From: Candidatus Anstonellales archaeon
GTDB taxonomy: Archaea > Micrarchaeota > Micrarchaeia > Anstonellales > J096
Reading direction: 5' to 3'
DNA: 64,000 nt
Assembly: GCA_038896535.1 (NCBI GenBank)
Contig: JAWACY010000001.1
Location: 96,001-160,000 of the forward strand
The translations under genes and the position numbers were made by a program. The first letter of the stretch is position 1; each line of letters opens with the position of its first letter. Shown in pieces: positions 15,950-58,273 of the stretch. Below the pieces are notes generated by a model. That model ran no database searches and was not told the origin of the DNA. It was given only the letters and a program-made list of their open reading frames with translations.

Positions 15950-16231
15950 GTAAGAAGGCGGTGTATAAGCCAATTTGCCTTCTTCCCCAAGCGTATAATA
16001 GGGGCTGGAAGATTGTAAGAAGGCGTGTGTATAAGTTAATTTGCCTTCTTACTACAGGGAATAATAGGGGCAGGATGTTTGTAAGAAGGCGTGTGTATAA
16101 GGGTATTGCCTTCTTACCAAAGGGGATAATAGGGGCGGGAAGATTGTAAGAAGGCATGTTTAATAGGGTGAGCGCCTTCTTACCGGGAAGATTGTAAGAA
16201 GGCGTGTGTATAAGTTAATTTGCCTTCTTAC
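15950..16231 (-). repeat. tRNA-Lys-linked array of 5 palindromic units (GTAAGAAGGC-N17/18-GCCTTCTTAC)
   Basis: Units at 15950-15986, 16015-16052, 16081-16117, 16146-16183, 16194-16231; linkers 28, 28, 28 and 10 bp. Confidence 0.95.
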
Positions 16232-16233
16232 TA

Positions 16234-16307
16234 CGGGTCTGGAGGGATTTGAACCCTCGACACTCCGGTTAAGAGCCGGATGCTCTACCAAGCTGAGCTA
16301 CAGACCC
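16234..16307 (-). tRNA. tRNA-Lys (CTT)
   Basis: Reverse complement folds as a cloverleaf: GGGTCTG acceptor, CCGG-CT-CTT-AA-CCGG anticodon arm, GGTTCAAATCC T arm. Confidence 0.95.
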
Positions 16308-27959: not shown

Positions 27960-28034
27960 GGGCTCGTAGCTCAGCTTGGATAGAGCGGCTGCCTTCTAAG
28001 CAGTAGGTCGAGGGTTCAAATCCCTCCGAGCCCG
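27960..28034 (+). tRNA. tRNA-Arg (TCT)
   Basis: GGGCTCG/CGAGCCC acceptor, GCTGC-CT-TCT-AA-GCAGT, GGGTTCAAATCCC. Confidence 0.95.
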
Positions 28035-28037
28035 TAG

Positions 28038-28075
28038 GTAAGAAGGCGCTAACCCTATTATACATGCCTTCTTAC
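28038..28075 (+). repeat. Single palindromic unit of the tRNA-linked repeat family
   Basis: GTAAGAAGGC GCTAACCCTATTATACAT GCCTTCTTAC, 3 nt after tRNA-Arg. Confidence 0.95.
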
Positions 28076-31820: not shown

Positions 31821-32082
31821 GTGGCGGGCTTCCTGTTATGCAAGCATTCCCTAAGTGATCAGCATAACAAAGGCCCTCTGTGCTGTTTGCTCCAAACAAC
31901 TGCCATACACTTAGGGCTGCTCGTTACCGCCTGACCCAGTTCATGTATAGCAATCAATGGAGGACAGCACTTCATTGCTTTATTATGCCATCTTCCTTAA
32001 AGAATGCTTACTTCACAGGCATTCGGCCCGCCTATAGGGGATTTGCGGTAAAGGGACCCCTAGCCCCAGCCTAGCCCGCCAC
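31821..32082 (-). ncRNA. ffs: Signal recognition particle (7S) RNA
   Basis: Terminal helix GTGGCGGGCT/AGCCCGCCAC; Alu domain with complementary loops TAGGGG/CCCCTA; helix 8 motif GAAC..TCAGG-CG-GTAA-CG-AGCA. Confidence 0.93.
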
Positions 32083-51054: not shown

Positions 51055-51142
51055 GCCCGGGTGGCAGAGCGGCCATGCGGCCGGCTGCAGCTCCAGAAAA
51101 AGTAGAAACCGGCATAGGGGGGTTCGACTCCCTCCCCGGGCT
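51055..51142 (+). tRNA. tRNA-Cys (GCA) with a 17-nt intron at 37/38 (51091-51107)
   Basis: GCCCGGG/CCCGGGC acceptor; GCCGG-CT-GCA-G[intron]A-CCGGC; CTGC/GTAG central helix. Confidence 0.9.
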
Positions 51143-56961: not shown

Positions 56962-57033
56962 GCCCTAGTAGCTCAGCGGAAGAGCGTTCGCCTCGTAAGC
57001 GAAAGGTCGGGGGTTCAAATCCCCCCTAGGGCT
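56962..57033 (+). tRNA. tRNA-Thr (CGT)
   Basis: GCCCTAG/CTAGGGC acceptor, TTCGC-CT-CGT-AA-GCGAA, GGGGGTTCAAATCCCCC. Confidence 0.95.
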
Positions 57034-57037
57034 CTTG

Positions 57038-57435
57038 GTAAGAAGGCAAATTAACTTATACACACGCCTTCTTACAAACATCCCGCCCCTATTATACGCT
57101 TGTGGAAGAAGGCGCTAACCCTTATACACACGCCTTCTTACAATCTTCCAGGTAAGAAGGCAAATTAACTTATACACATGCCTTCTTACAATCTTCCAAC
57201 CCCTATTATTCCCTGTGGTAAGAAGGCAAATTGACTGATAAACATGCCTTCTTACAAACATCCCACCCCTATTATTCCCTGTGGTAAGAAGGCGCTAACC
57301 CTTATACACACGCCTTCTTACAATCTTCCAGGTAAGAAGGCAAATTGACTGATAAACATGCCTTCTTACAAACATCCCACCCCTATTATTCCCTGTGGTA
57401 AGAAGGCGCTAACCCTTATACACACGCCTTCTTAC
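57038..57435 (+). repeat. tRNA-Thr-linked array of 7 palindromic 38-bp units
   Basis: Units start at 57038, 57104, 57152, 57218, 57284, 57332, 57398; linkers 28, 10, 28, 28, 10, 28 bp. Confidence 0.95.
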
Positions 57436-57645
57436 AAATATACAACTACTATTATCACCTCGATTTATTATAAACACGGCCAGAGTTGAGGATTAATAAT
57501 ATAAGCAAATAGTCAAAGAAAAGATAGAAATTATGGCCTTAACTATTTTGATATTATTTTAAGCGCCTGCTTTCTGCCCTTCAAGTCAGAGAAAAAATAA
57601 AAAAGAAAAAATTTTAGCCTTAGTCAGCAATATTTTAAACTGCTA

Positions 57646-58107
57646 TTATGGACATACAACTCTTAAAGGTGTTGTGCCAACTATTGTGTAATTCACTGTA
57701 CTTGGTGGGTAACCATATGTCAAAACCATTTGGAACTCTTTTAATTGCCCTGAATCTGCTGCTGCGCAAACTGTTGATGTAAAGTTCACATTAACATCTG
57801 CCGTATTTCCGGCAGTTATGTTTTTTGGCAATCCTGCGCTGTTTGCTGTTCCATCTAAGCTTACTGCTCTTAATTCTATTTTCTTAACATCTTTGTTTTG
57901 TATGCTCATTGTCAAGTTATTTGTGCCAACTGGAGAATAAGCAACTATGCCCAATGGAACTTGTCCACTCCAATAGCCCTTACTCTGATCAACCAAGCTC
58001 TTTGTACCAAATCCAGAGAAGTTTCCTAACAAGAAAATCACTAACAAAGCTACAACTAATACTGCTGCAAAGATTACTAAATACTCTGTAGAACCTTGTC
58101 CTTTCAT
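57646..58107 (-). CDS. Type IV pilin with class III signal peptide (candidate major pilin)
   Basis: MKG|QGSTEYL followed by a hydrophobic helix; GGTGA SD before ATG 58107. Confidence 0.85.
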   Translation of the reverse strand: MKGQGSTEYLVIFAAVLVVALLVIFLLGNFSGFGTKSLVDQSKGYWSGQVPLGIVAYSPVGTNNLTMSIQNKDVKKIELRAVSLDGTANSAGLPKNITAGNTADVNVNFTSTVCAAADSGQLKEFQMVLTYGYPPSTVNYTIVGTTPLRVVCP

Positions 58108-58273
58108 ACTCTCACCCATGAAAGAAAATTATAGTAAACATTTAAAAATTTTTTCATTTTTGGTATAAAAAAAATAAATAAATGCTTATTATATTCCAGC
58201 AAGCATAACCTTTAACAACTCTTATAGTTTGATAAAAAGGAAAAGTTTAAATATAAATTTGCGGTATTTAAAC

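Follow-up and report, generated by a model that had tools for sequence, protein, structure and literature searches.

A tRNA-linked palindromic repeat array with mosaic loops in a Micrarchaeota genome

Repeats at tRNA 3′ ends and the array behind tRNA-Thr(CGT)

REP, BIME and REPIN elements are short extragenic imperfect palindromes which occur in tens of copies, are species-specific and clustered, and are homogenised within a genome; RAYT transposases belong with them, BIMEs alternate in orientation and REPINs are inverted doublets. Integrative elements that target tRNA genes leave direct repeats (att sites) at tRNA 3′ ends, and the core sites of known recombinases have crossover regions of 2-8 bp. 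Tandem units downstream of tRNA genes are represented by the TLRs of E. coli, which were reported by Egan and Landy (1978) and Rudd (1999), as cited in PMC8144298. In the excerpt of that paper used here, TLRs comprise 22 units at ten loci, and at its 3′ end each unit has a stretch of 18-19 bp that repeats the 3′ end of the preceding tRNA or rRNA gene exactly; most are described there as having no known function, and three as processed small RNAs (PMC8144298).

We analysed a window of 64,000 nucleotides (C1:96001-160000) from the 751,790-bp, five-contig genome of a member of the Micrarchaeota (DPANN), hereafter G000, which has 31-34% G+C and is 91% complete. An array of seven hairpins lies directly behind the gene for tRNA-Thr(CGT), and sister arrays occur behind tRNA-Lys(CTT) and tRNA-Arg(TCT). 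Their features, in window coordinates, are as follows.

56962..57034, forward strand: tRNA-Thr(CGT), the array host (ARAGORN; Rfam RF00005, 73 bits)
57038..57435, forward strand: seven-hairpin array (pattern matches; predicted fold with seven hairpins)
57038-57075, 57104-57141, 57152-57189 and 57218-57255, forward strand: units 1-4 of this array
57284-57321, 57332-57369 and 57398-57435, forward strand: units 5-7 of this array
57086..57113 (C1:153086), forward strand: spacer/arm variant CCCCTATTATACGCTTGTGGAAGAAGGC, which the genome contains exactly twice
57217..57437, forward strand: 114-nt two-hairpin block in perfect tandem duplication (1.9 copies, 100% matches; Tandem Repeats Finder)
15950..16231, reverse strand: five-hairpin array behind tRNA-Lys(CTT)
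15977..16004 (C1:111977), reverse strand: second copy of the CCCCTATTATACGCTTGTGGAAGAAGGC variant, inside the Lys array
16234..16307, reverse strand: tRNA-Lys(CTT) (ARAGORN, Rfam)
27960..28034, forward strand: tRNA-Arg(TCT) (ARAGORN, Rfam)
28038..28075, forward strand: one hairpin unit behind tRNA-Arg(TCT), with loop GCTAACCCTATTATACAT

Each unit of the tRNA-Thr(CGT) array is 38 nt long, with 10-bp arms (GTAAGAAGGC/GCCTTCTTAC) and a loop of 17-18 nt. The units are arranged head-to-tail, the first starting 4 nt past the tRNA gene, and are separated by spacers of either 10 nt (AATCTTCCAG) or 28 nt (AAWCWTCCNRCCCCTATTATWCCCTGTG); the duplicated 114-nt block accounts for the final 221 bases. In the Lys array the distal unit is degenerate, with a GGAAGAAGGC arm and a 17-nt loop. 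The core pattern was matched 13 times in the window as against 0 times in 100 shuffles. The predicted fold of tRNA-Thr(CGT) together with its array is a cloverleaf followed by seven hairpins, at -147.4 kcal/mol as against -98.6 +/- 5.0 for shuffled sequences (z = -9.7). Contigs from public runs, which are independent of the assembly, match positions 57164-57315 with zero differences. Six DNA runs, from two hot-spring metagenome studies, contain the tRNA-Thr(CGT) locus, for which no RNA run is listed, and their contigs end within the array; most of the pieces derive from paralogous arrays, and their junctions are indistinguishable from those of other arrays. Just past the array, an ORF at 57650-58110 (reverse strand) has an N-terminus that by eye resembles a class III (type IV pilin-like) signal, MKGQGSTEYLVIFAAVLVV. 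An intron-bearing tRNA at 51055-51142 (forward strand) was called as tRNA-Cys(GCA) by ARAGORN with introns allowed, and otherwise with an odd 4-base anticodon.

Like the TLRs of E. coli, the units of G000 stand in tandem directly downstream of tRNA genes, on the same strand and at ten or more loci, and in a relative (G006) each unit carries the hallmark of TLRs, here a 30-nt copy of a tRNA-Ala 3′ end. In contrast to TLRs, the units of G000 are plain 38-nt hairpins in an archaeon rather than an enterobacterium, and where a TLR repeats 18-19 bp of the upstream gene, they match a tRNA 3′ end over 10-11 nt at best. An Rfam scan of the window at gathering thresholds returned only tRNAs and the SRP RNA, with no match to the TLR model RtT. 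For the SRP RNA (31824-32079, reverse strand) the best model of the Rfam clan was 'bacterial large SRP', at 98 bits, despite the archaeal genome. With REP elements the units of G000, 68 in number, share the form of a short extragenic imperfect palindrome with 10-bp arms, present in many copies; in contrast to BIMEs and REPINs, its arrays are all in direct orientation and tied to tRNA 3′ ends, and no Y1/RAYT gene was found in it. The position at tRNA 3′ ends, the single T-arm sequence of the occupied genes and the tRNA 3′-end copies in G006 recall att repeats, but G000 yielded no integrase gene, cargo or viral match, and its units are just 48-66 nt. As candidates for recombinase dyad sites, the G000 hairpins have asymmetric loops which, at 17-18 nt, are far wider than crossover regions of 2-8 bp; neither a gene of the recombinase families searched nor one fixed crossover position was found in the 91% complete genome. 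A search of the literature gave no description of such arrays in archaea.

Genome-wide census and association with tRNA genes

In the whole of G000, 68 units were parsed at 16 loci. A tolerant pattern had given 70 matches in 20 clusters before curation; isolated matches at C1:52775, C1:271897 and C2:131051 were left out because their loops are unrelated and each stands alone, and the end of contig C2 and the start of contig C4, with a 97-nt identical overlap, were scored as a single locus. Both of these contig ends (C2:240144-240444 and C4:1-93) lie within one array; C2 and C4 are probably adjacent, and the array of tRNA-Leu(CAG) is probably longer than assembled. All 68 units are intergenic, every unit within every array is in direct orientation, and the number of units per array ranges from 1 to 7.

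A tRNA gene on the same strand immediately precedes 13 of the 16 loci, and in 12 of these 13 the first arm begins 2-4 nt past the tRNA, the exception being tRNA-Leu(TAA) at 84 nt. The occupied genes (13 of 43) are all five for tRNA-Leu, three for Arg (TCG, CCT and TCT), two for Thr (CGT and TGT), two for Ile (GAT and the intron-bearing TAT) and that for Lys-CTT. Three arrays are located away from tRNAs (C1:166819, C1:320115 and C2:197507). Each of them begins after a linker-like CTGT[AG] or CTTGTG, and the one at C1:166819 is behind an ORF that by eye is polyprenyl-synthase-like. The 84-nt insert that separates tRNA-Leu(TAA) from its array (C1:207430-207512, outside the window) ends in a palindromic T-arm-like module, GATTTGAAGCC-AAA-GGGTTCAAAT, joined directly to the first hairpin. 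Such modules were also seen in three relatives, G003 (L250/L262, with a 7-nt centre GAGAAGA), G006 (L299, centre GAGGAGA) and G013 (L307/L308); in its sequence the module looks like a recombination core site based on the tRNA T arm.

All 13 occupied tRNAs carry the T arm GGGTTCAAATCCC, as against 11 of the 30 unoccupied ones (Fisher p = 0.0003, from a table in which Arg-TCG is scored as array-less on the ARAGORN boundary). The last 26 nt are identical in all five tRNA-Leu genes, and Arg-CCT and Arg-TCT have an identical 3′ end of their own. A T4 or T5 run within 20 nt is seen at many unoccupied tRNAs, while the occupied ones have none before the array. Aligned to tRNA 3′ ends, the 28-nt linker gave a mean best score of 15.0 as against 12.8 +/- 0.4 for shuffled linkers. 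The match, ATCCC[GA]CCCC, is 10-11 nt long and is not at the unit end, and the end of the linker, CCCTGTG, recalls CCCTGCA of tRNA-Leu; the resemblance of the linker to a tRNA 3′ end is suggestive only.

One stem sequence is found across all G000 units, apart from a subfamily in three arrays in which A-T replaces G-C at the outermost pair (ATAAGAAGGC/GCCTTCTTAT). This is a compensated change, and the subfamily is confined to 31-64 kb on C1. First units are intact, and distal units are decayed in at least 7 of the 13 tRNA-linked arrays, the decay consisting of GGAAGAAGGC or TGAAGAAGGC arms, wobble pairs and degraded last units. Counted by eye, six G-U pairs suit the sense strand and one the antisense strand. 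Several known kinds of element were also considered by eye and rejected: C/D box RNA (the units have no C box), H/ACA RNA (the loop is too small for a pocket and K-turn), an archaeal promoter (the sequence differs from the A/T-rich boxes upstream of tRNAs), an integron attC site (its core is not matched and IntI is absent), an oligo-T terminator (the G/C-type arrays have no T4 or longer run) and a repeat-encoded peptide (the ORFs are just 17-47 aa and the unit lengths are not all multiples of 3).

Counterparts in related genomes

Among relatives, 33 tRNA flanks in 28 loci were examined, several of which begin with other hairpins, namely in G003 (L250 twice, L232 once), G012 (L235, L254) and G010 (L240). 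Within the same genus as G000, no element was seen at four tRNA-Thr flanks of G001 and G002; at tRNA-Thr(CGT), two of the same-genus genomes are without an element and the third has a different one. G003, also of this genus, has its own multi-hairpin element of about 150 nt after tRNA genes (L257, L260-L267), which is different from that of G000 and is present in at least nine copies at tRNA ends and contig ends, with many at the latter.

In a related genus, g4 (G006, G010 and G013), the architecture is as in G000 with different letters. The g4 unit joins a purine arm, AGGGGG(G)(A/T/AG), to the matching pyrimidine arm by a loop of 16-20 nt whose core is AACTTAT or AAGCATAT, and its linker is CTTC[ACT]A[AC]CCCC[CT]TAT[GC]TTAT as compared with CTTCCAACCCCTATTAT in G000. 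A covariance model, R1, built from 26 G000 units was compared with the g4 loci, which had been selected by the linker motif. When 31 kb were searched, it gave the g4 units low scores of 16.5-19 bits (E 0.016-0.05). It aligned them over their full length and with eight standard pairs, in four of which both bases differ from those of G000. Judging from these alignments, homology of the g4 and G000 units is likely rather than proven, and we grade it no higher because the R1 scores are weak. Run over 101 genomes of the order, R1 had real matches in G000 alone (64), the stricter filters of that search missing the g4 units. The six best foreign matches were inspected and are single sites, with no tRNA found in their loci and no arrayed hairpins around them.

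A census of G006 (989,524 bp) gave 52 hairpins, and the linker motif comes next after 30 of these. Of the hairpins, 22 lie at most 450 nt downstream of 7 of the 20 tRNAs found by ARAGORN, mostly on the tRNA strand, and the first hairpins are offset from these seven tRNAs by +7, +7, +8, +20, +20, +54 and +77 nt. Behind tRNA-Ala(CGC) every 111-nt unit ends with a 30-nt copy of the 3′ end of that tRNA, and a 3′-end copy of the CGC type is also present behind tRNA-Ala(GGC). The 20 tRNA genes are all that ARAGORN finds in the 990 kb of this 93% complete genome with introns allowed; the missing ones may have unusual introns, be split genes or lie in unassembled repeats.

Mosaic loops and their possible origin

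The loops of the array were originally described as mosaics of two halves of about 9 nt, with rare variants shared between distant arrays, and all of the halves and combinations listed in that description were recovered. GCTAACCCT does join TATACACAC at Thr(CGT) and ATTATACAT at Arg; the number of left halves that precede TATACACAC is three in the window, as stated, and six genome-wide; and CCCCTATTATACGCTTG.GGAAGAAGGC, common to the Lys and Thr(CGT) arrays, has exactly two copies in the genome, with near relatives in four more arrays. Genome-wide there are 44 distinct loops, made from 12 left and 29 right 9-nt halves. In a compatibility test on these 44, in which alleles present in fewer than two loops were ignored, 2 of the 21 pairs among sites 1-7 were incompatible (19 compatible), and these sites define three deep left types, AAATTRRCT, RCTNACCCT and AA-TRCCCT. 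Incompatibility was found for 47 of 49 left-right site pairs and for 18 of 21 pairs within sites 10-18. As a description, the two-half mosaic falls short: the left sites form a coherent block, but the right sites are themselves reticulate.

Permutation of site order in a PHI-type test was significant overall (p 0.0006-0.003) and not significant inside the right half (p 0.13-0.2), i.e. the latter has no distance structure, with the proviso that the units are related, so that significance is inflated in any test scoring them as independent. At least six separate intervals of exchange or homoplasy are required, and tabulation of the halves over the genome accordingly gave no fixed breakpoint. When pairs from different arrays share the right half and differ in the left, the next 8 nt are shared in 23 of 101 cases, against a baseline of 245 of 1756; when they share the left half and differ in the right, the preceding 8 nt are shared in 1 of 140, against 40 of 990. 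Between a loop half and its own flank there is hardly any linkage, the right halves showing a weak one downstream. Given the weak flank linkage and the many intervals, the units are therefore scrambled at many points, and the loop centre is one such point because it divides a multi-site block from isolated differences. The half-loop mosaics are not assembly chimeras, since the shared loop core is shorter than 10 nt and thus below any assembler word.

Right halves that lie two to three steps from the common TATACACAC, namely TATATATGC, ATTACACAT, TATAAACAT and GATAAACWT, are each common to left types differing at seven sites. Different arrays are joined by identical tracts of 40-59 nt, two tracts starting at the loop centre and running through the arm and linker (51 nt between Leu-CAA and Leu-TAA, 43 nt between Thr-CGT and Ile-GAT), and the similarity of arrays declines with their distance along C1 (Spearman rho -0.42, Mantel p 0.005). 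The G000 stem was not found among 40 relatives, three of them from the same genus; a single stem within the genome that is not found in relatives points to concerted evolution, which requires exchange. G000 also has a gene for RadA (1.3e-92). The shared multi-step right halves, the identical tracts, the exact variant confined to the Lys and Thr arrays, the distance effect and RadA all fit ectopic gene conversion between loci, one of the two mechanisms put forward in the original prediction. Single transitions at the right end of the loop may well have recurred in addition, and some of the scrambling could be due to repeated mutation at sites 14-18, because the right half has no distance structure.

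The reading we prefer, at a probability of roughly 0.58, is that the interval is a tRNA-linked palindromic repeat array, the mosaics of which arose by tandem duplication and short-tract ectopic conversion among some 68 near-identical units. The family would consist of lineage-specific 38-nt palindromic modules with 10- or 28-nt linkers, placed on the 3′ flank of a third of the tRNA genes and occupying what is presumably the transcribed tRNA trailer. Its units would multiply locally by tandem duplication or unequal exchange, and homology-dependent ectopic gene conversion, putatively by the RadA pathway, would keep the loci alike, with homology being available in the constant arms, in the linkers and in the 3′ halves that the tRNAs have in common. 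Patchy heteroduplex repair between slightly different units could then leave mosaic-looking loops, in which the seven-site left block, which includes an indel, would be converted whole, and the isolated differences on the right would be converted or mutated independently. The case for conversion is indirect, the sequences compared being short-read contigs that break inside arrays, and it is the mechanism of conversion, along with co-transcription with the tRNA and any function, that we infer.

The readings considered are not all mutually exclusive. An alternative that we regard as unlikely is that modules, with or without their linker, were inserted singly beside the tRNA 3′ end by a trans-acting enzyme of a virus, a plasmid or a lost element. 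Such an enzyme would have the T arm or the 3′ end as its target, insertion would push older units outward to decay, and the mosaics would be secondary; we consider this order of events just as unlikely. The 2-4-nt offset, constant at 12 of 13 loci, the single T-arm sequence (GGGTTCAAATCCC in 13 of 13 occupied tRNAs as against 11 of 30) and the polarity from intact first units to degenerate distal ones in at least 7 of 13 arrays look more like targeted insertion than like diffuse conversion. Orthologous tRNAs without the element in sister genomes, the tRNA-Ala(CGC) 3′ end in a unit behind tRNA-Ala(GGC) of G006, and the palindromic T-arm-like module with a 7-nt centre in G006 and G003 point the same way. 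However, three arrays are away from tRNAs and start inside a linker, and the perfect 114-nt duplication is tandem and not tRNA-proximal. Moreover, G000 yielded no gene for an integrase, a transposase or a reverse transcriptase, and the viral contigs scanned gave 0 matches to the hairpin, to an arm with linker, or to the g4 linker. Whole-genome profile searches of G000 gave no hit for serine recombinases (PF00239), Y1/RAYT transposases (PF01797), TnpB, reverse transcriptase or IS110 transposases, with the control genomes being matched, and none for tyrosine recombinases (PF00589), for which the same search matched 14 of 14 control genomes; no XerA-like gene was thus detected in this genome. Since the assembly is 91% complete, absence of an enzyme is not proven, and a trans-acting one could come from a virus or plasmid. 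The same searches bear on the other mechanism of the original prediction, in which the hairpin is a dyad site and a recombinase exchanges strands at the loop centre, producing half-loop mosaics and possibly inversions between opposite arrays. Such exchange would account for the 47 of 49 incompatible left-right pairs, for the two inter-array identical tracts that start exactly at the loop centre, and for the unique variant shared by the Lys and Thr arrays, which are mutually inverted and 41 kb apart. It does not account for the six or more intervals, the 18 of 21 incompatible pairs inside the right half, left halves that are unlinked upstream and right halves that are weakly linked downstream, or loops that are wide and asymmetric, and no gene of the recombinase families searched was found; we consider it very unlikely and the least probable of the readings. 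Mosaic loops are, moreover, the expected product of concerted evolution in a multi-copy repeat, and the recombinase idea was therefore set aside.

It is also very improbable that there was no exchange at all, and that the diversity of the loops stems from repeated point mutation, in descendants of three founder left types, at a small number of loop positions that are hypermutable or under selection. Many right-end differences are indeed single transitions (ACAC, ACAT, ACGT, ACGC), and the incompatible pairs inside the right half are not structured by distance. Against it, the four multi-step right halves named above are common to left types seven sites apart, shared halves extend into identical flanking tracts of 43-51 nt, and the stems are identical within the genome and different in relatives. 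Function is a further candidate: the modules would be parts of the tRNA-precursor trailer, serving 3′-end formation, protection or small RNAs, and selection would keep the loop variants. This we hold to be improbable, as we do the corollary that the shared loop halves reflect function as well as conversion. All tRNA-linked units are on the tRNA strand, the array-bearing tRNAs have no T4/T5 run of the kind that many array-less ones have within 20 nt, and the G-U pairs (six against one) fit the sense strand. Compensatory changes keep the hairpin, by G-C to A-T in G000 and by wholly different stems with a similar loop core and linker in g4, and three E. coli TLRs are, according to the excerpt cited above, processed sRNAs (PMC8144298). 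Yet just 13 of 43 tRNAs are occupied and sister genomes manage without arrays, the arrays have anywhere between 1 and 7 units, three of them stand apart from tRNAs, and the sequence is species-specific, like that of selfish repeats.

The loops were also searched against the rest of G000, and no excess of matches was obtained (0 at up to one mismatch; 6 at up to two mismatches, as against 3-8 for shuffled loops). Loops acting as guides or CRISPR-like spacers were rejected, as they are 44 variants of a few halves and have no excess of matches in their own genome. In genome and metagenome collections, the 222 matches listed included only single unrelated hairpins, none with the loop motifs of G000, and they carry no information on distribution.

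Small DPANN genomes are otherwise streamlined, and G000 spends several kilobases on hairpin arrays at tRNA 3′ ends. Its arrays show how such repeats spread between tRNA genes; they also break assemblies, as with contig C2, which ends in one, and C4, which starts in one. With compensated stems and tRNA 3′-end copies in a related genus, the Micrarchaeota offer a second, independent setting for asking what TLRs are for. A wider reading, which we consider quite doubtful, is that the repeats are an archaeal counterpart of TLRs, conserved across genera of Micrarchaeota with co-evolving stems, and that, co-transcribed with the tRNA, they would either give rise to small hairpin RNAs or, as trailer structures, fix or shield the 3′ end in places that have no oligo-T terminator. 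The loops would then be variable recognition segments, and the purine arm and pyrimidine tail might form a triple helix. A homopyrimidine mirror repeat, CCTTCT-TACAA-TCTTCC, runs from the 3′ arm across a turn of five bases into the linker in 27 of the 68 G000 units. Stem G-runs and linker C-runs in G006 are of equal length in 21 of the 28 units that have such a C-run (12 of 15 at G5 and 9 of 12 at G6, the one G7 unit being mismatched). The mirror repeat and the matched runs would allow a triple helix, and shared descent explains the pattern equally well.
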